Assembly (NCBI GenBank): GCA_018373675.1
Contig: JAHAGQ010000010.1
Location: forward strand, 1,349-65,348
Length of the DNA: 64,000 nt
Source: Collinsella sp.
GTDB taxonomy: Bacteria; Actinomycetota; Coriobacteriia; Coriobacteriales; Coriobacteriaceae
Direction of reading: 5' to 3'
This document shows positions 767-53,513 of the stretch, one piece after another. The position numbers and the translations under genes are program-made. Position 1 is the first letter of the stretch, and every line of letters begins with the position of its first letter. Below the pieces are notes generated by a model. That model ran no database searches and was not told the origin of the DNA. It saw only the letters and a program-made list of their open reading frames with translations.

Positions 767-8743
<7,977 letters not shown>

Positions 8744-9005
8744 CAGGTTTTTCCTCCTTCACGGAAATGCTCGGTGGGTTGGCGAGGCATAGCTTCGCCA
8801 GTTATCGCAACCTAATAGTTTATCAGGTACCGACCGTTGGGCAAGAAAAGCCTTGACGCGATTGAGTTTTTGGAGTAGCAAAGTTTTTCGACAGAAAACA
8901 CGCAGGTAGATAGGTGTGCATCGAACACCTGTTCATATATTTTCTGTGAACGAGACCGCTGGTACGGGCCGCTGCATGGCGGAATGGCGGCGAGGGTTGA
9001 TCGAG

Positions 9006-9178
9006 CGGAAACTGCGTCCCGTTTTGAGGCCTCAAACTGGGTCGCAGTTTCCGGTTGAGCCCTGTTTGGGAAAGCATATCCCGTTCTGAGCCGAAATTCC
9101 GGGTCGCAGTTTCCGCTAGGGGCCTCAGCCGGAAAGCGCATCCCAGAATTCGGCCGAATTGTGGGTCGCAGTTTCCGG
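9006..9178. repeat. Tandem array of three 48-50 nt hairpin units in the rpoB upstream region
   Basis: Units at 9006-9053, 9068-9115 and 9129-9178. Each has a stem of CGGAAAnnGCnTCCC paired with GGGTCGCAGTTTCCG, with palindromic loops (gttttgaggcctcaaac, aattcggccgaatt). Same family as the cluster at 25116-25317. Confidence 0.55.
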
Positions 9179-9251: not shown

Positions 9252-10160
9252 TTACTTGCGCATCAATCCGCCGCGCTCGTCGATGGCGTCCCAGAAGGCG
9301 CCGGCAAAGCGAGGATCGCTTGCAGCCATGAGAGCGTTGGTGGCCATCCAGCCAGAGGGAGTGCCGGTGTCGTAGCCCGACAGCGGGTCGGTGACGACGG
9401 CATACATGGCCTCGCGGTCGAGCGAACGGGCCATGGCGTCGGTGAGCTGGATCTCGCCGCCCTTGCCGGCCTGCTGATCTGCCAGCAGGTCCATGACCAG
9501 CGGGCTCAGCAGATAGCGGCCGACGATGTACAGGTTGGACGGAGCAGCCTCGGGAGCGGGCTTCTCCACCAGGCCGCCGATACGCCAGACAGCGCCCGGC
9601 TCTGCATCGGCAACGTCCTCGGCGCCCTCGAGCGAACCGACGCGCTCGCCGGCGATAACGCCGTAGCGGCTGACTTCCTCGGGCGAGCAAGCAGCGACGG
9701 CGATAACCGAAGCGCCACCGTGCTCCTTGGAAACGGCGAGCATCTTGTCGCAGATGTCGCGGTTAGGCACAACGTAGTCGCCCAGAAGAACCAGGAAGTT
9801 CTCCCCTGCCACGGCGTCGGCAGCAGAGCGGATAGCATGGCCGAGGCCCTTGGGCTCGTACTGATAACGGAAGTCGACCGGCATACCGCCAGCGTGGGCG
9901 ACGGCATCGGCATAGGCGTTCTTGCCGCGCTCGCGCAGCAGGTTCTCGAGCGAGCGATCGGGCTGGAAGTAGTTCAGCAGCTCGGGCTTGCCGGGAGAAG
10001 TAACGATGATGGCATCGTCGACCTCCTCGGGGTCGAGCGCCTCCTCAACGACATACTGAATGACGGGCTTGTCGAGCACCGGCAGCATCTCTTTGGGCGT
10101 GCACTTAGTGCCAGGCAGAAAACGCGTGCCAAGACCGGCGGCGGGGATGATTGCCTTCAT
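9252..10160 (-). CDS. galU: UTP--glucose-1-phosphate uridylyltransferase
   Basis: MKAIIPAAGLGTRFLP...LPVLDKPVIQYVVEEA is the nucleotidyltransferase signature. Start assigned to the ATG at 10160 with RBS AAAGGA; the track ORF over-extends to 10244. Confidence 0.85.
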   Translation of the reverse strand: MKAIIPAAGLGTRFLPGTKCTPKEMLPVLDKPVIQYVVEEALDPEEVDDAIIVTSPGKPELLNYFQPDRSLENLLRERGKNAYADAVAHAGGMPVDFRYQYEPKGLGHAIRSAADAVAGENFLVLLGDYVVPNRDICDKMLAVSKEHGGASVIAVAACSPEEVSRYGVIAGERVGSLEGAEDVADAEPGAVWRIGGLVEKPAPEAAPSNLYIVGRYLLSPLVMDLLADQQAGKGGEIQLTDAMARSLDREAMYAVVTDPLSGYDTGTPSGWMATNALMAASDPRFAGAFWDAIDERGGLMRK

Positions 10161-25115: not shown

Positions 25116-25317
25116 GGGCCATAGTTTCCCGATGAGGCCTCTCGGGAAAACTACATCCCAGAATTCCGGCTCGAAACGGGATATGGTTTCCCAAACAGGC
25201 CTCTTACGGAAAATGCATCCCGGAATCCCCGCTCGAAACGGGACGCGCTTTCCCAGTCGAGGCCCTATGGGAAACTGCGTCCCACCTTGAAAGGCAAAAC
25301 TGGGGCGCAGTTTCCGG
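25116..25317. repeat. Tandem array of four hairpin units upstream of feoAB
   Basis: Stems GGGCCATAGTTTCCCG/CGGGAAAACTACATCCC; CGGAAAATGCATCCC/GGGACGCGCTTTCCC; GGGAAACTGCGTCCC/GGGGCGCAGTTTCCGG. Same family as 9006-9178, with compensatory base changes between units. Confidence 0.55.
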
Positions 25318-39612: not shown

Positions 39613-40803
39613 TTACTCAATGATCGTGGAGACGATGCCCGAACCGACGGTGTGGCCACCCTCGCGGATAGCGAAGCGCAGGCCCTCCTCCATGGCGATC
39701 GGGTGGATGAGGTCGCCCTCGATGGTGATGTGGTCACCAGGCATAGCCATCTCGGTGCCCTCGGGGAGCTTGACCGTACCGGTAACGTCGGTGGTACGGA
39801 AGTAGAACTGAGGACGATAACCATCGAAGAACGGGGTGTGACGGCCGCCCTCCTCCTTGGTCAGAACGTAGATCTCGCCGGTGAACTTGGTGTGCGGGGT
39901 AACCGAACCGGGCTTGCAGAGAACCTGGCCGCGCTCGATGTCCTCACGCTTGATGCCGCGGAGCAGCAGACCGACGTTGTCGCCAGCCTCGCAGAAGTCC
40001 ATGGACTTACGGAACATCTCGATACCGGTAACGACGGTGTTCTGGGTATCCTTGATGCCGACGATCTCGACGGGCTCGTTGAGCTTGAGCTCACCGCGCT
40101 CGACACGGCCAGTAGCAACGGTACCACGGCCGGAGATGGTCATAACGTCCTCAACGGCCATCAGGAACGGGAGGTCGTTGTTACGAGCAGGCGTCGGGAT
40201 GTACTCGTCGACGGCCTTCATGAGCTCGCGAATGGCGTCCATCCACTTGGCGTCGCCCTCGAGAGCGCCCAGAGCGGAGCCACGGATGACGGGGATGTCG
40301 TCGCCGGGGAAATCGTACTCGGAGAGGAGCTCACGGGTCTCCATCTCGACGAGGTCGATGAGCTCGTCATCGTCGACCATGTCGCACTTGTTCAGGAAGA
40401 CGACGATGTAGGGAACGCCGACCTGACGGGCGAGCAGGATGTGCTCGCGGGTCTGAGCCATGGGGCCGTCGGTAGCAGCGATGACCAGGATAGCGCCGTC
40501 CATCTGAGCAGCGCCGGAGATCATGTTCTTGACGTAGTCAGCGTGGCCCGGGCAGTCAACGTGAGCGTAGTGACGGGCAGCGGTCTCGTACTCAACGTGG
40601 GAGACGGAAATCGTAATGCCGCGCTCGCGCTCCTCGGGAGCCTTGTCGATGTTCTCGAACGCAGTGAAGTCAGCCTTGCAGCCCTCGGTCTCGGAGAGAA
40701 CCTTGGTGATGGCAGCGGTCAGCGTGGTCTTGCCGTGGTCGACGTGACCAATGGTGCCGATGTTAACATGCGGCTTAGTGCGCTCAAACTTCTCTTTGGC
40801 CAT
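39613..40803 (-). CDS. tuf: Elongation factor Tu
   Basis: [33 protein letters not shown]..., 396 aa. Confidence 0.97.
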
Positions 40804-41055: not shown

Positions 41056-41065
41056 ACTTGACGGG

Positions 41066-41147
41066 TGGGAGCTATAGGATTCGAACCTATGTAGGCAGAG
41101 CCAACGGGTTTACAGCCCGTCCCCATTAACCACTCGGGCAAACTCCC
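41066..41147 (-). tRNA. tRNA-Tyr (anticodon GTA), class II with a long variable arm
   Basis: Minus strand: GGGAGTT...CCCGAGTGGTTAATGGGGA...CTGTAAA anticodon loop, long variable arm, TTCGAATCC T-loop, CCA end. Confidence 0.8.
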
Positions 41148-41470
41148 AATCGTTCAAGTATCCGCAGGTTCTTTGGTCTTTTGGACCGTCGCCCCCGCGA
41201 ACGAAGAAGATAATACGATGCCACCTTGGGGGCTGTCAACGAAAACCTCTAGATACACGGTGCCGGGCGTATCTATATAGCCGTGACCTGCGGTTTTATT
41301 GAGTTTGGATATGAAGGACAGTGGTTTTGGATACTGAGGTGACGTTTCCCAAGGTAACACTTTGCTGTAGTGGAGTACACCTTCAGTATCGAACTTCGAT
41401 ACCAGCTTATTTGCACCTATATATAGGTCGAGATCGGGGCTGCCCAGACAGAAGATTGCTCTTCCCAGGC

Positions 41471-41622
41471 AAAATCGAGCGTGGATTTTCTTCCGTTTGA
41501 AATCGAGCGTGGATAATCTCCCACTTTGCCGTGCCATCGAATCCAAAGTGGCAGATTATCCACGCTCATTCACTAGGCGGAAGATTTTCCACGCTCGTGT
41601 GTCCGATAATCCACGCTCGATG
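41471..41622. repeat. Cluster of five 14-bp ATCCACGCTCGAT-type repeats (DnaA-box-like cores) in both orientations
   Basis: Copies at 41471-41489 and 41499-41518 (forward, ATCGAGCGTGGAT), and at 41554-41570, 41583-41599 and 41605-41622 (reverse). Cores TTATCCACG/TTTTCCACG/ATAATCCACG resemble the DnaA box TTATCCACA. Confidence 0.55.
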
Positions 41623-41650
41623 ACGATGACCAACCTCGCCCCGGCCTATG

Positions 41651-41866
41651 TCTCGACCTGTAACAGTAAGAGGGTTATTCCTCCCCTATCTGTTACAGAT
41701 CGAGATGTTTCGCAGAAACCCCCGCTTACGTCTCATTCTGTAACAGTAAGAACGGTTTTCAGCCTCTTCGTGTTACGGATCGAGATGTTATCGGCCTTCC
41801 CTTGGCAATGTTTCGATCTGTAACTATAAGGAGGGTCTTCAGCCCACTCGTGTTACGGATCGAGAC
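41651..41866. repeat. Three tandem 80-bp direct repeats, each containing a 10-bp inverted repeat
   Basis: Units start at 41651, 41731 and 41811. Consensus tctgtaacagtaagaRSggtYttYYagccYctYcgtgttacggatcgagatgtt. TCTGTAACAG pairs with CTGTTACAGA within each unit. Confidence 0.6.
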
Positions 41867-41960
41867 AAACCTGAAGCTTGGTTGGCGCCAAACACGCTGA
41901 CTTATCGACATAAATAGAAACGGGCCCTGTCCCACAAGGAAACAGAGCCCGAAACTCTCA

Positions 41961-42035
41961 TGGAGCCAGTGACAGGAATCGAACCTGCAACCCACTGATT
42001 ACAAATCAGTTGCGCTACCGTTGCGCCACACTGGC
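41961..42035 (-). tRNA. tRNA-Thr (anticodon TGT)
   Basis: Minus strand: GCCAGTGTGGCGCAACGGTAGCGCAACTGATTTGTAATCAGTGGGTTGCAGGTTCGATTCCTGTCACTGGCTCCA. Confidence 0.8.
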
Positions 42036-42188
42036 ACACTTGGCGCTTTCACGCGAAGCGAGTTAAGAATAAAGGAATTGCGGACGGGGCGCAACAGGCC
42101 GCACGGCGTTATACAAATATGCAAAATCCAGCAACAACGCGTACCAGGCCCGTTCATTTCTGTCAGTGCGCCCTCAATCTTAAAACCA

Positions 42189-42249
42189 TTCGCCAGAACG
42201 AATAGTTTTAATTACAATTGCTATATATAAAACTATTCGTTCTGGCGAA
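42189..42249. promoter_or_regulatory. 22-bp perfect inverted repeat (candidate operator) overlapping the promoter/RBS of the HTH-HipA-like gene
   Basis: TTCGCCAGAACGAATAGTTTTA (42189-42210) is the exact reverse complement of 42228-42249. The 17-bp AT-rich spacer contains TATATA. The arms extend imperfectly to about 29 bp. Confidence 0.55.
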
Positions 42250-42259
42250 GGGTTTCGCG

Positions 42260-43600
42260 ATGCTTACTACCAAAGAAGCCGCCGAGCTGCTCGGCATCAC
42301 TCCGCGCAGGGTGCAGGAGCTCATAAAAAACGGAGCACTTGAGGCCCGCAAGGCTTCTGGTGTATGGCTCATCGACAAAGACAGCGTCGACACGCGACTC
42401 CGCTCTGTGACCAAAACGGGGGGACGTCCCCGCCGCGGCCACGGTAAGAGCGAGATCGCGTTCACCCTCATGAACCGCACGTACGAAGTCGCTCAGCTGG
42501 TCTACAGTACATCGCGAAAAGACTTTACCCACATCGGTGCCGACATCGATTACGCCCACGCCCCTATTGGAGTATTTGGCCCTAATAGCCCCATATCGCT
42601 AGACTCCTTCCGCATCTGGTGGCGCGGCCGCGGTATCCCGCTCGCACGCATTGGGCTAGCCTCCCTGCTTGCAGAAGCCGCTGTCGATGTTCCCGATGAA
42701 CTCGTCCAGCGAAATCTCGGCCTCTCCTTATCCGACCAGTATTGGATTAGGCCCCAAGGTTCCGGTCTCACCTGGGAGGATATCAACTTCTTCAATAACG
42801 CCTTTGATGACGTCTCGCTGTCCATTGCACCCTTTGCCCCAGAGGGAAAAGCGGCTGCCGCAAAGCCCGATAACACCTCGGACGGCAATCTTCAAAAGTA
42901 CTGGACGTGCGAGGGCGAACGTCGAATTCTGCATAAGGCAGGAGCGCACCTGGACCAGGAACCTTATAACGAGCTGGTGGCGACCGCGCTCCACCGTCGC
43001 ATCCTAAACGCCTGCGATTATGTGCCTTACTCGCTCGAGGGCACGGGCACTTCCGCCCTGAGCACATGCGATGTCTTCTTAACTGATGAAGAAGAGTATG
43101 TCCCTGCGTTCTATGTAAACCAGCACGCAAACGCAGATGAACGGCTAACCGACTACGAGCGATATGTAGCAAACTGCGAGGAGCTCGGGGTGACAGGCGT
43201 CAAGGATGCCCTTGACCGCATGATCGTATGTGACGACATCATTGCCAACTACGATCGTCATTGGCGCAACTTCGGCCTCGTGCGAAACGTAAACACGCAA
43301 GCTTGCAGACCTGCCCCCATCTTCGATTCGGGCTCATCGCTCTGGTGCAACATATCACTAGAGGAGCTTAGGGCGGGAGAGCACAGTTTTACCAGCGCAC
43401 AATTTCATTCAAGCCCCGCCAAACAAATGTTGCTCGTCGAGGACATGGGCTGGTTTGACTGCGACAAACTCGAAGGCTTCGTTGACGAGGCAATCGAGAT
43501 TCTTTCCAGAAACGACGCGCTCACGGCAAGGCTGCCATATCTAAAAGAGGCGCTAACGTGGCGCCTCGAAAGAATGATCGACATCGCTGAATGGAGTTAG
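42260..43600 (+). CDS. Solitary HTH-fused HipA-family Ser/Thr kinase (YjjJ/HipH-like)
   Basis: 446 aa from ATG 42260. N-terminal excisionase/MerR-like HTH (MLTTKEAAELLGITPRRVQELIKNGALEARK). The C-terminal region carries a HipA-like catalytic-loop pattern DRHWRNFGL (compare DAHAKNYSL in the canonical HipA at 50624). The size matches E. coli YjjJ. Confidence 0.6.
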   Translation: MLTTKEAAELLGITPRRVQELIKNGALEARKASGVWLIDKDSVDTRLRSVTKTGGRPRRGHGKSEIAFTLMNRTYEVAQLVYSTSRKDFTHIGADIDYAHAPIGVFGPNSPISLDSFRIWWRGRGIPLARIGLASLLAEAAVDVPDELVQRNLGLSLSDQYWIRPQGSGLTWEDINFFNNAFDDVSLSIAPFAPEGKAAAAKPDNTSDGNLQKYWTCEGERRILHKAGAHLDQEPYNELVATALHRRILNACDYVPYSLEGTGTSALSTCDVFLTDEEEYVPAFYVNQHANADERLTDYERYVANCEELGVTGVKDALDRMIVCDDIIANYDRHWRNFGLVRNVNTQACRPAPIFDSGSSLWCNISLEELRAGEHSFTSAQFHSSPAKQMLLVEDMGWFDCDKLEGFVDEAIEILSRNDALTARLPYLKEALTWRLERMIDIAEWS

Positions 43601-43627: not shown

Positions 43628-44305
43628 CTACCTCCCGCGCAGGGCCTTGAGCTTGGCCAGGGCATCGGGGCTCAGGCGACTGCCCAGAGTCATCTTGATT
43701 TGTGGAGCTTCCTCGGCCTCGTGCACGTCGTTGTCGATCTGTTTGATCTCGTCCACCAGCATACGGCTCGAGATGCGCGTAACGCCCTTGCCCATGACGA
43801 CGGCCTGGATCGTGCCGTCGCTCGACACTACAGAACACGCGCGGCCTTCCTCGCGCGCCTCGATGCAGAGCTTCTGCACCACGGTATCGGCCGAAACACC
43901 CGTCGGCGAAAACTCAATGCGCACACCGCGGGCCGGTAGGTTGGGGCGCTCGCTGGAGATATTGCCCGCGCCGTCAAATACGATCACGGCCTCGTAGCGG
44001 CCCTGGGCAAACGCAGCTACGTCATTAATGAGCGCCGTTCGCGCCATATCGTGAACGTCGCTGGAATACGGATCGTCGGAATGGTCGTACACGAGCTTTT
44101 CGTAGCGCGGCGTGCAGTGGATCACGTTGTAACCGTCGACCACCAGCAGCTCGGGCTTGTTGGAGTGCACCGTCGAGACTGGGTCGGCGATAGCCTGCGC
44201 AAACGCATTGCCGCCCACGCCATAGGTCGCGGCCGAAACAATCGGCTTGGCCGAGCCCTCGCCAAAGCGCTTGGCCTTGGACTTGGCACGGTTCTTTTTG
44301 GACAT
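43628..44305 (-). CDS. NYN-domain YacP/Rae1-like ribonuclease
   Basis: LLVVDGYNVIH...VIVFDGAG is the NYN/PIN-like signature of YacP. Its position after rlmB-cysS matches the Bacillus yacO-yacP synteny. Confidence 0.75.
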   Translation of the reverse strand: MSKKNRAKSKAKRFGEGSAKPIVSAATYGVGGNAFAQAIADPVSTVHSNKPELLVVDGYNVIHCTPRYEKLVYDHSDDPYSSDVHDMARTALINDVAAFAQGRYEAVIVFDGAGNISSERPNLPARGVRIEFSPTGVSADTVVQKLCIEAREEGRACSVVSSDGTIQAVVMGKGVTRISSRMLVDEIKQIDNDVHEAEEAPQIKMTLGSRLSPDALAKLKALRGR

Positions 44306-52055: not shown

Positions 52056-53513
52056 TTACGCAGCGAGGCGCTTGAGGACGTCGATGAGCAGCTCGTAGAA
52101 GCGCTCGGCAGAAGCGAGCTCCATGCTCTCGTCCGGGGTATGGACATCGGAGAGCGTCGGGCCCACGGCGATGGCGTCCAGGCCGTGCAGAGCCTCGGCA
52201 AACAGGCCGCACTCAAGGCCGGCGTGAATGGACTCGATGCGCAGCTCGGAGCCAAAGAGCTCTCGATAGCTCTCGACAAAGACTTCGCGGACCGGCGAAT
52301 GCTCGGCATAGCTCCAGCCGGGATACTCGAACTCAAACTTGGCGTCGAAGCCCAGGACATCGGCAAGCGTCTGCAGGCGGTCCTTGAACTCGTTCTGCAG
52401 CGAGGTGATCGAGGAGCGCGGGGACAGCATAATCTTGACCTCGTCATCGGAGGTGGCGACCACGCCGATGTTGGAGGAAACCTCGACGGAGCCGTCGGTG
52501 GCGACGTTGCGGCGAATCACGCCGTTAGGGGCAAGACGCAGGGCGCGGATGAGGGCAAGCGCGGACTTCTCGTCCATGGCCTCGACCTCGGCGTCGTCGG
52601 CAATCTCGACGGTGCAGGTAAAGCCGGGGTCGAAGACCTCGAGCTCGGCAGTGACGTCGGCGATGATGCCCTTTGCGATCTGGGCCGCGGCCTCGGCGGC
52701 AGCGTGATCGGCATAGACCAGAACGGCCTTGCACTCACGGTTGATGGCGTTGTCCTTGGTGCCGCCGTTGAAGCTGACGATGGCGGGCTCGCCGGCGACC
52801 ATCAGGCGGTCGATGATGCGGGCCATGATGAGGTTTCCGTTGCCGCGCTCCAGGTTGATATCACTGCCGGAGTGGCCGCCCAACAGACCGGAAATGTCGA
52901 GCGTGAGGGTGCTACCGGTCTTGTGCTCGCGCACGATGGGGCAGGTGTAGGTAACGACGACGCCGCCGGCGCAGCTGACGGTGGCAACGCCCTCCTCCTC
53001 GGAGTCGAGGTTGATCATGGTGCGGGCGCTGATCTGGGACTTGTCGAGCGTCTCGGCGCCAACCAGGCCGGTCTCCTCGTCGGTGGTGAACACGCACTCG
53101 AGGGCCGGATGGGCAATCGAATCGTCGTTGAGCACAGTAAGCATAAGCGCGACGGCGATACCATTGTCGGCGCCCAGGGTGGTGCCGTTGGCGGTAAGGA
53201 CGCCGTCCTTGACGACCAGGTCGATACCATCGGTCGTAAAGTCGTGCTCAACGGAGCCCAACTTGTCGCACACCATATCGATGTGGCCCTGCAGCATCAC
53301 GGTCGGGGCATTCTCGGCGCCGGCAGATGCGGGCTTGCGAATGATGACGTTGTAGACCTCGTCCTGATACACATCGAGACCGCGCTCCTTGGCAAACGCG
53401 ACCAGGAAATCGCTGATGCCCTTCTCGTTGCCAGACCCACGGGGGATCGCGCTGACCTCCTCAAAGAAATGGAACAGCTGGGCGGGCTCGTAGCCGGTAA
53501 TCTTGTAGTCCAT
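52056..53513 (-). CDS. pepD: Aminoacyl-histidine dipeptidase (M20 family, PepD-like)
   Basis: MDYKITGYEPAQLFHFFEEVSAIPRGSGNE...LQGHIDMV... Start at ATG 53513; the track over-extends to 53618. Confidence 0.85.
   Translation of the reverse strand: MDYKITGYEPAQLFHFFEEVSAIPRGSGNEKGISDFLVAFAKERGLDVYQDEVYNVIIRKPASAGAENAPTVMLQGHIDMVCDKLGSVEHDFTTDGIDLVVKDGVLTANGTTLGADNGIAVALMLTVLNDDSIAHPALECVFTTDEETGLVGAETLDKSQISARTMINLDSEEEGVATVSCAGGVVVTYTCPIVREHKTGSTLTLDISGLLGGHSGSDINLERGNGNLIMARIIDRLMVAGEPAIVSFNGGTKDNAINRECKAVLVYADHAAAEAAAQIAKGIIADVTAELEVFDPGFTCTVEIADDAEVEAMDEKSALALIRALRLAPNGVIRRNVATDGSVEVSSNIGVVATSDDEVKIMLSPRSSITSLQNEFKDRLQTLADVLGFDAKFEFEYPGWSYAEHSPVREVFVESYRELFGSELRIESIHAGLECGLFAEALHGLDAIAVGPTLSDVHTPDESMELASAERFYELLIDVLKRLAA

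Follow-up and report, generated by a model that had tools for sequence, protein, structure and literature searches.

The DNA analysed here, which is referred to as the window, is a 64,000-nucleotide (nt) stretch of a Collinsella genome assembly (contig JAHAGQ010000010.1), and the subject of this report is an 812-bp spacer in it that lies between tRNA-Thr(TGT) and tRNA-Tyr and holds two kinds of repeats, a module of short boxes in both orientations and an array of 80-bp hairpin units. The EF-Tu encoded at 39613-40803 on the minus strand is identical to that of C. aerofaciens ATCC 25986 (CP048433.1) and to that on many gut-metagenome contigs, and therefore, going by this identity, the window is chromosome of the C. 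aerofaciens type. On the upstream side, in the order of transcription, are cysS, rlmB, yacP (43628-44305), a plus-strand HTH_17/HipA_C-like open reading frame (ORF) at 42260-43600 and tRNA-Thr(TGT), and downstream of the spacer follow tRNA-Tyr, tRNA-Thr(GGT), tRNA-Met, tuf, rpmG, tRNA-Trp, secE, nusG, rplK and rplA; the relevant genes are all on the minus strand except for that ORF. ARAGORN and Rfam place tRNA-Thr(TGT) at 41961-42035 on the minus strand, its 3' end being an integration site in other strains, and tRNA-Tyr(GTA) at 41063-41148 on the minus strand (58.9 bits with the Rfam tRNA model), where it heads the tRNA-Tyr/tRNA-Thr(GGT)/tRNA-Met/tuf operon. Followed along transcription, the segment thus begins at the 3' end of tRNA-Thr(TGT) and reaches as far as the 5' end of tRNA-Tyr, in agreement with a first, sequence-only reading of this DNA.

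The terminator scan found the intrinsic terminator of tRNA-Thr(TGT) at 41921-41951 on the minus strand, a 13-bp stem followed by TTTCTATTTA, and the promoter scan found a sigma-70-type promoter of the tRNA-Tyr...tuf operon, TTGACA-18-TATTAT (11/12), at 41210-41239 on the same strand, about 60 nt upstream of tRNA-Tyr; the promoter was the same in every strain compared in the alignments. From the positions of these two signals it follows that the repeats sit between two transcription units, upstream of the tRNA-Tyr/Thr/Met-tuf operon as the first reading had placed them. The GC content of the spacer is 46-51% compared to about 58-64% in the flanking genes, and no credible coding sequence was found in it, since the sole long ORF (41154-41546) has a third-position GC content (GC3) of 0.51 compared to 0.63-0.82 in real genes; this agrees with the earlier description of the segment as lower in GC and without a convincing coding sequence. 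The promoter-upstream region at 41240-41470 (minus strand) is conserved in the alignments across strains and species: the palindrome CCTATATATAGG at 41416-41427 is invariant, about 230 bp around it are conserved in all the strains and species compared, and GATACGCCCGG, just upstream of the -35 element, also precedes the tRNA-Tyr promoter in the sequence of Lancefieldella (L015). Judged by this conservation, the region 41240-41470 is native to the locus and separate from the repeats, and CCTATATATAGG and GATACGCCCGG are probably native control elements of the tRNA-tuf operon, for example a second promoter or a factor-binding site.

The box module occupies 41474-41621 and is, by repeat analysis and folding, a 148-bp composite palindrome of five units of the form AY-GAGCGTGGA-WWW-TC-(TCCC/GGAC). 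The 14-mer GAGCGTGGAWWWTC occurs in it five times, at 41477-41490 and 41505-41518 on the plus strand and at 41554-41567, 41583-41596 and 41605-41618 on the minus strand, so that the five copies in both orientations that had been noted were counted correctly; expressed as the 13-mer ATCCACGCTCGAT, three copies are exact (41474-41486 and 41502-41514 on the minus strand and 41609-41621 on the plus strand) and two are degenerate, and the 13-mer is matched once with 2 mismatches at 41558-41570 on the plus strand. Elsewhere in the 64 kb, ATCCACGCTCGAT is matched with at most 2 mismatches only at 25225, and the expected number of exact 13-mers in 64 kb is about 0.002 (2 x 64000 / 4^13). The edges of the module form a 17-nt inverted repeat, ATCGAGCGTGGATWWTC, at 41474-41490 and 41605-41621, and the whole module folds as a single composite hairpin of 148 nt with a free energy of -48.2 kcal/mol and a z-score of -11.1. 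Its core is a central hairpin at 41505-41567, a 96% complementary inverted repeat with 24-nt arms (GAGCGTGGATAATCTSCCACTTTG) and a variable loop of 15 nt (z-score -9.9).

The hairpin array was found by repeat analysis as three tandem 80-bp units at 41639-41709, 41719-41789 and 41799-41869, the starts of which are exactly 80 bp apart and which are 66-76% identical to each other. Each unit is built from 15-bp arms, TCTCRATCTGTAACA, which begin at 41651, 41691, 41731, 41771, 41811 and 41851, exactly 40 bp apart and in alternating orientation, with variable stretches of 25 nt between them; beyond the array, the sole match to the arm in the window with up to 2 mismatches is at 53365. When Tandem Repeats Finder was run over 40-43 kb there was no output, because the identity of the units is below 70%. 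The three 80-bp hairpin repeats of the first reading were borne out as to their number and period and only in part as to the hairpins, as one unit of the three is still a strong hairpin with a z-score of -6.5, compared to -0.9 and -2.3 for the other two, which fold no better than shuffled sequence.

Both families were then sought elsewhere with exact-pattern scans, using a box-pair pattern in metagenomes and viral contigs and a hairpin-unit pattern in collections that included IMG/VR; metagenome contigs were taken as Collinsella by GC content, shared tuf locus and mutual similarity only. The box-pair scan of metagenomes gave at least 80 loci in Collinsella-like contigs from the human gut, and only about 15 of the 80 listed are the tuf locus. 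Together with the window and the related copies of the tuf locus, the listed metagenome loci bring the modules to at least 122 in total, and for the 102 modules of the window and the 80 listed loci there are at least 12 flanking contexts, which are unrelated and intergenic. The neighbours are ordinary genes, namely fthc, metA, ldh, a pyrE-like gene, RecQ, a Clp ATPase, tgt and SDR and also a low-molecular-weight phosphatase, ThrE and an MFS transporter, and no rep, dnaA, transposase or integrase gene was seen among the adjoining genes examined. Box modules often start 3-50 nt past stop codons, and 43 of the 85 distinct central hairpins found at other sites lie within 150 nt of the 3' end of a gene. 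When viral contigs were scanned with the box pair, only low-GC chance matches were found.

The hairpin-unit pattern was found in eight IMG/VR contigs with 61-64% GC, none of which is the tuf locus. In three of them the array precedes tRNA-Glu(TTC) by about 100 nt and a prophage lies beyond this tRNA; in the remaining five it is at a second site, adjacent to a phage. An M16 peptidase gene also has arrays downstream of it, and in C. aerofaciens TSDC17.2 an array stands between convergent DeoR and RluA genes, which brings the arrays to 47 in all with at least five flanking contexts. For both families, then, the typical site is just past a stop codon or between convergent genes, beside terminators and tRNA genes. 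Every array in the eight IMG/VR contigs adjoins a terminator-like hairpin, AACCACCRCAAAGGGG...CCTTTGYGGTGGTT. At all the non-tuf loci the hairpin AACCACCRCAAAGGGG-ACAGGCA-CCTTTGYGGTGGTT(TT) is directly beside the array, on either side of it (L097-L104; L145:6440-6520), and it may be a repeat family of its own or part of a composite element. A third repeat, the palindrome GACTAGTCATTGGGGACGTTCTTAAATGACTAGTC, adjoins several box modules (L126:9000-9050; L136:2150-2190 and 9700-9750; L168:14243-14290; L205:150-200), and therefore the repeats form mosaics in the manner of the bacterial interspersed mosaic elements (BIMEs).

Among the 72,556 records of PLSDB, both repeats match one Collinsella record only, and on these comparisons both families are restricted to Collinsella. 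The matching record, NZ_OY725717.1 (L011, L092-L096, L270), is entered in PLSDB as a circular, non-mobilizable 'plasmid 6' of 900 kb, and it carries tuf, genes of the rpoB region, ribosomal protein operons, recA, ftsK and many tRNA synthetases; it is a fragment of the C. aerofaciens chromosome mislabelled as a plasmid. Seven match places in this record were considered as dispersed copies, and this was rejected when 250 kb of the record were examined and none was there. The surplus probably stems from the repeats of the tuf locus aligning with each other, since that locus by itself gives as many separate alignments and the first 250 kb are empty. In the same record a Gfo/Idh/MocA oxidoreductase gene and a DeoR gene directly follow rplX (L270:2008-3837, which is 511294-513123 of the record). 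This insertion falls in the normally contiguous S10-spc ribosomal protein cluster and a three-unit hairpin array comes next, so the site after rplX may be another repeat-marked insertion hotspot.

The anatomy of the box family is strict. The orientation of the boxes is convergent in all modules, the spacing of boxes of the same orientation is 22 bp (80 cases) or 28/29 bp (144 cases), and the central inverted pair is 49-51 bp apart in 104 of 110 cases; a module has 2-6 boxes within 37-173 bp. At the centre stands a hairpin of about 64 bp in which two inverted 24-nt arms that start with GAGCGTGGATAATC enclose a variable loop, and written in full it is GAGCGTGGATAATC-tcccRYTTTGG, a variable loop of 14-18 nt, and CCAAARYggga-GATTATCCACGCTC. 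It can be flanked by units of 22 or 29 bp, 0-4 of them extra to the centre and all pointing inward, and these outer units end in GGAC in place of TCCC. Nearly all members have the inverted pair, and the roughly 12 of 122 modules without it are probably truncated. The logo of 290 distinct box instances reads A-Y-GAGCGTGGA-WWW-TC-(TCCC/GGAC)-R; conservation reaches past the box, the flanks of the modules are locus-specific, and all the other modules end in the same way as the 17-nt inverted repeat does in the window. In the second family an array consists of 1-3 tandem 80-bp units, each an inverted pair of 15-bp arms 40 bp apart, with the unit consensus TCTCgATCTGTAACA-NN-TAGA-N13-TCTA-NC-TGTTACAGATcGAGA. 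No covariation was found in the hairpin arms, where the variable pair 5/51 assorts independently (G-C 27, G-T 17, A-T 16 and A-C 16), and for the central hairpins of the box family the two strands do not differ in stability, nor is one orientation favoured with respect to the upstream gene (13 vs 6). As there is no covariation and shuffled sequence folds as well as two of the three units in the window, it is the sequence rather than the pairing that is conserved, and the conservation looks like recognition of DNA sequence and not like selection for an RNA or DNA fold.

The spacer was compared with 22 other Collinsella copies of it (L001-L010, L012-L014, L260-L262 and L264-L269). Genome contigs were also scanned with EF-Tu; among the matches listed there were three Collinsella, one Lancefieldella and two partial loci, and most were from distant phyla. 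All 22 of the other Collinsella copies have hairpin units, and all except L014 also have boxes. The number of hairpin units in this spacer is 2-3 both in the ten further strains with the same EF-Tu, which have 4-5 boxes, and in nine more strains, which have 2-5 boxes. Since these strains all carry the repeats, they are old residents of the locus and not the scar of a recent insertion. L014, from a related Collinsella species, has three hairpin units and lacks the entire box module, yet its tRNA-tuf promoter and the region upstream of it are near-identical to those of the window, and in L012, where the box module is shortened, promoter and upstream region are likewise near-identical. Because L014 keeps the same promoter without the box module, the module is, as far as this comparison goes, dispensable for the promoter of the tRNA-tuf operon. 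Lancefieldella parvula has the same tRNA order with a spacer of 309 bp and neither repeat.

What differs among the strains is the cargo, which enters the spacer at three different points. Between tRNA-Thr and the hairpin units there is a GmrSD-type restriction gene or a pair of unknown genes (L001, L260, L267); in L002 (3664-5213) an element of the IS110 family of insertion sequences (IS), with DEDD_Tnp_IS110 and Transposase_20 matches, lies exactly between the last hairpin unit and the first box; and in the type represented by L003 a 4-kb operon of a phosphotransferase system (PTS) EIIBC, GH1 and RpiR is found between the boxes, with a direct repeat of about 30 nt over a box unit on either side. 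Elements of the IS110 family target palindromes that resemble repetitive extragenic palindromic (REP) sequences. Integrase-bearing islands were found at the 3' end of tRNA-Thr(TGT) itself (L009:1-709; L263:11493-18678), and the one in L263 carries a Type ISP restriction-modification enzyme. The suggestion that the segment is a piece of a mobile element at a tRNA integration site is thus upheld in so far as the spacer is a strain-variable hotspot whose repeats look non-autonomous, and fails for the relic of a single element, as the hairpin units are in 22/22 copies and the boxes in all of these but L014. An idea that the repeats are operators for RpiR-type regulators was also considered, for RpiR-family genes adjoin modules at two loci, and was rejected; the RpiR proteins are only 20% identical and the adjacency therefore looks like coincidence.

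The explanation that we hold to be probable is that the spacer has been colonised by two dispersed families of extragenic palindromic repeats restricted to Collinsella and is not a replication element. We infer that the repeats are non-autonomous elements of a REP/BIME-like kind or like miniature inverted-repeat transposable elements (MITEs). On this explanation the units would be recognised as DNA sequence by a protein that acts in trans, and at the tuf locus the repeats would be neutral passengers or at most a structural buffer between two transcription units. Being repeated and palindromic, the sequence would make the spacer prone to recombination and insertion, which would be why different strains carry different cargo at different points, be it GmrSD, the two unknown genes, IS110 or the PTS/GH1/RpiR operon.

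By comparison with known systems, the defining features of which (REP, BIME, MITE, attC, pdif, datA and the DnaA box) were taken from general knowledge, the nearest kinds would be REP/BIME/REPIN elements, MITEs and the pneumococcal BOX elements, and the fit appears good but incomplete. Like REP sequences, the repeats are extragenic imperfect palindromes found at many sites in a narrow taxon, at the 3' ends of genes and between convergent genes, with inverted or alternating units; inverted pairs form long hairpins as in REPINs, fixed linkers and alternating clusters recall BIMEs, and in L002 an IS110 element lies beside the array. Unlike REP sequences, they were seen in a dozen or so contexts and not in hundreds, they have no GTAG-type 5' tetranucleotide, their units are longer (21-29 bp plus the 24-nt arm) and their host is an actinobacterium (Coriobacteriia). 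REP elements of Proteobacteria are mobilised by REP-associated tyrosine transposases (RAYTs), and here no RAYT/Y1-transposase gene was seen beside the modules among the neighbour families scanned. With MITEs and the ends of transposons such as Tn7, Mu and Tn402 the modules share a size of 37-173 bp, terminal inverted repeats (the 17-nt ATCGAGCGTGGATWWTC in the window), inward-pointing sites at fixed spacing, locus-specific flanks and presence/absence polymorphism (L014), and they differ from them in that neither a target-site duplication nor a parent IS was seen and in that it is the outer boxes that vary and the central pair that is constant. The pneumococcal BOX element (boxA-boxB(n)-boxC) is likewise a modular intergenic repeat with predicted stable stem-loops and a strain-variable number of units; there is no sequence relationship, and BOX has three types of module where one unit in two orientations is found here.

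Several observations weigh against this explanation. No transposase, RAYT-like gene or recombinase partner was found at the modules among the neighbour genes examined. No target-site duplication is visible, the two bases outside the module being complementary to each other, and none at the empty site of L014. The outer boxes vary and the centre is constant, which is the reverse of a classical MITE with its essential termini. The number of copies is low for a REP family: about 360 kb of C. aerofaciens DNA that were examined have a single box module, which is at the tuf locus, and BLAST against the 900-kb record reported matches in one region only. From the single module in about 360 kb it follows that the copy number per genome is modest and depends on the lineage. 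For the other modules no empty site was seen in this DNA, which does not include the orthologous regions. Finally, at three loci two modules flank accessory genes, which could mean that they are recombination sites and not passive repeats. Pfam scans of 20 neighbour families showed no Y1_Tnp domain, and no IS with ends like the box module was seen in the loci examined. An identity of the modules as transposon ends or MITEs in the strict sense was rejected, since neither a target-site duplication nor a parent IS was seen in the loci examined.

The three loci lead to the alternative that the box modules are recombination sites of the attC or pdif kind, at which a recombinase acting in trans moves cassettes, and that the module of the window is an empty (solo) site. 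We regard this as unlikely but worth stating. Equally tentative is its wider form, in which a so far undescribed cassette-exchange system with an unlinked enzyme, integron-like but without the integron platform, would use the box modules and perhaps also the hairpin arrays as its sites around the Collinsella chromosome. In such a system the enzyme would recognise the 21-bp box unit or the folded central hairpin and would move single defence genes or small operons. What speaks for it is that three independent polymorphisms contrast a module-cargo-module arrangement with a single module, that the boundaries of the cargo are the edges of units and that the cargo is of the defence type. One polymorphism is the PTS/GH1/RpiR operon at the tuf locus with its flanking direct repeat of about 30 nt over the box unit. 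Another is p341, a gene for an AbiEi-like protein of 341 aa, which is between fthc and metA in 23 of the 80 listed loci; in L145 it is at 8069-9094 on the minus strand with box modules at 7957-8042 and 9327-9441, and L168, which is without p341, has one hybrid module at 7565-7679. The third is a SoFic-type Fic gene of 1.39 kb (L136:2256-3643; PADLOC 2e-106), flanked by box modules and also found in L246-L259. Its locus is between a gene for an RpiR-like protein or a PTS EIIA and a pyrE-like gene; in L136, L202 and L246-L249 the interval from the RpiR-like to the pyrE-like gene holds SoFic and one extra central hairpin, and in L126 it holds neither. The SoFic gene appears lower in GC on direct reading and fails the GC3 gene filter.

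As to the prediction that the same cassette should be found at different modules, all 16 of the 16 other SoFic contigs examined show one and the same locus and the sole exception is the low-coverage contig L197. In this contig (1312 bp) the SoFic cassette is joined at 544-639 through a box module to the promoter region of the tuf locus, which would support movement of the cassette. It is a contig of 1.3 kb with a coverage of 1.85x in which the switch of partner lies inside a shared arm of 25 nt, and it may be a rare real recombinant or an assembly chimera. The SoFic cassette is nearly always seen as an isolated short-read contig, mostly of about 1.6 kb within a range of about 1.4-2.3 kb, one cluster of which has 6402 members, and these isolated contigs are probably due to the flanking repeats breaking short-read assemblies. 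Against cassette exchange it also counts that no recombinase is linked to the box modules among the neighbour genes examined, that ordinary recombination between directly repeated modules explains the single-module alleles equally well, and that inverted boxes spaced by 36 bp, or by a loop of 14-18 nt, misfit the core site of a tyrosine recombinase as it is generally known. p341 was considered as the mobilising enzyme and rejected, as nothing in Pfam, NCBIfam or PDB matches it and its only match in PADLOC is AbiEi-like (3.9e-9). Inspected by eye, the C-terminus of p341 recalls nucleases of the DUF559/Vsr-like kind. The modules resemble the attC sites of integrons and the pdif sites of Acinetobacter in their palindromic build, with a variable loop between conserved arms, in their position on either side of single accessory or defence genes, and in that alleles with the gene have two sites and alleles without it have one. 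Unlike in integrons, there is no intI-like integrase beside the modules, no cassette array and no GTTRRRY core here, the sites are scattered among housekeeping genes, and the arms TGTAACA/TGTTACA of the hairpin units match GTTRRRY only in part on direct reading; unlike in pdif, the geometry misfits a XerC/D site of two 11-bp arms and a 6-bp spacer. If the modules were such sites, the one in the window would be a docking site that stands empty, next to an operon that is among the most highly expressed in the cell, and a new route for the shuffling of defence genes would be indicated.

Dispersed repeats, as preferred here, also have to be weighed against a function of the repeats in cis, as a terminator/insulator block that shields the strong tRNA-Tyr...tuf promoter against read-through from tRNA-Thr and from inserted cargo, or as an upstream operator array to which a nucleoid-associated protein or a regulator would bind and which tunes the transcription of stable RNA. 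Their position exactly between terminator (41921-41951) and promoter (41210-41239) would suit this, as would the occurrence of both families elsewhere at gene 3' ends beside terminator-like hairpins, the high stability of the central hairpins (about -37 kcal/mol as RNA) and the fixed spacing of the boxes, which suggests that a protein binds. We nevertheless hold a cis function to be improbable, for L014 has an unchanged promoter without the box module, the copy number varies among strains, no consistent T-tracts follow the hairpins, there is no strand asymmetry with respect to the upstream gene and the neighbour genes have no common functional theme that would be the sign of a regulon. That the spacer encodes one or more structured non-coding RNAs, the hairpins of which are functional, is very improbable. 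The strong fold of the box module (z-score -11) is in its favour, and so is that the arm variants of many central hairpins (cgtttt vs aaagtg) would pair as G-U on one strand; however, Rfam at permissive E-values gave tRNAs only, the other matches being sub-threshold microRNA models on the palindromes, the arms do not covary, neither strand is preferred in the central hairpins, for two of the three 80-bp units the fold is no stronger than that of shuffled sequence and the region is downstream of a terminator and upstream of a promoter.

The weakest alternative is the one with which the sequence-only reading began, that the spacer is a cluster of DnaA boxes with iterons, be it a secondary or relic origin, the remnant of a plasmid or of an integrative and conjugative element, or a DnaA-titration locus like datA, and it has next to no probability left now that box modules are known in at least 12 unrelated intergenic contexts and hairpin arrays in at least five, dispersed at gene 3' ends without DnaA context, and that L014 lacks the box module and keeps a near-identical tRNA-tuf promoter, both being outcomes that the sequence-only reading had itself set down as counting against it. 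The likeness to the DnaA box that had been put at 7-8 of 9 positions is 8/9 in two boxes, at 41508-41516 and 41556-41564, when compared with TTATCCACA; the others go down to 6/9, and TTTTCCACG reaches 8/9 only under the relaxed consensus TTWTNCACA. When the box unit is read in the frame of the DnaA box it is GA-WWW-TCCAC-G-CTC-R, and in the logo of the 290 instances it does not fit the DnaA consensus TTATNCACA, in which T1, T2, T4 and C-A-C-A are conserved: the equivalents of T1 and T2 are A/T at about 0.4-0.6 each and the A of position 9 is replaced by G in about 100%. The strongest conservation is outside the DnaA 9-mer, with CTC-R on one side and GA-(GGGA/GTCC) on the other, and is left unexplained by a 9-bp DnaA site. 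In common with the DnaA-box clusters of oriC, datA, DARS and Bacillus, the boxes are intergenic TCCAC sites in both orientations that follow an A/T-rich trinucleotide near tRNAs, and the spacer is more AT-rich than its surroundings; the datA locus of E. coli also adjoins tRNA genes. Unlike in those clusters, the core here is GAGCGTGGA, T1, T2 and A9 are unconserved, and the sites are dispersed, follow a rigid palindromic grammar and are dispensable in a sister species.

The surroundings of the spacer give the same picture. No rep gene is around the spacer in the window, and tblastn with the DnaA of B. subtilis found no match in the window; the same query gave nothing beyond an AAA-type match of 41 residues in 290 kb of C. 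aerofaciens TSDC17.2, and no Collinsella record in the plasmid collection. Of the coding sequence, the minus strand holds a fraction of 0.77 to the left and 0.81 to the right of the spacer, so that the strand bias does not switch, and no clear change of skew was seen within the window; by these measures, no replication fork begins or ends at the spacer. BLAST of the spacer against the 72,556 plasmid records returned only the mislabelled chromosome fragment NZ_OY725717.1, and against 50,697 phage records there was no match. Plasmid-type iterons were rejected, as the supposed 80-bp iterons are inverted 15-bp arms every 40 bp that are also present at other loci, the spacer has no coding sequence and there is no plasmid or phage homology. 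A replication terminus was considered as well, since the tuf locus is at about 50% of CP048433.1 and at 52% of another 2.4-Mb contig, but was rejected as there is neither a strand-bias switch nor a clear change of skew. The tuf/rplKA/rpoBC cluster is at 1214477-1227667 of the 2428218 bp of CP048433.1 (L001) and at 1254869 of 2408322 in L008, and if these records start at dnaA, the main cluster of translation genes is unusually far from the origin.

Sites like TTATCCAC beside AT-rich tandem repeats are thus an easy false positive for an origin or a DnaA-titration site, and it is the extended logo, the dispersal and the presence/absence comparison that tell an origin from dispersed repeats. Literature searches found no description of these Collinsella repeats, and as far as we found both families are apparently undescribed so far. 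Collinsella is an abundant genus of the human gut with very many species-level lineages, and the repeats mark hotspots of difference between its strains, at which GmrSD, SoFic, AbiEi-like, HipA-like and Type ISP genes and a PTS operon of the beta-glucoside type are found. Even if they are passive, they would serve as markers for strain typing and call for caution in metagenome assembly.

On the other side of tRNA-Thr(TGT), a near-perfect inverted repeat of 28 nt, AAACCATTCGCCAGAACGAATAGTTTTA, with a loop of 17 nt lies at 42183-42255, directly upstream of the plus-strand ORF at 42260-43600. In this ORF of 446 aa an HTH_17 domain is found at the N-terminus, HipA_C is matched weakly and PADLOC reports PDC-M03A (4.5e-15); the ORF varies among strains, being absent from L001, L005 and L007, where the inverted repeat upstream of it nevertheless stays. 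From these features the ORF and its inverted repeat look like an autoregulated toxin- or defence-like gene.

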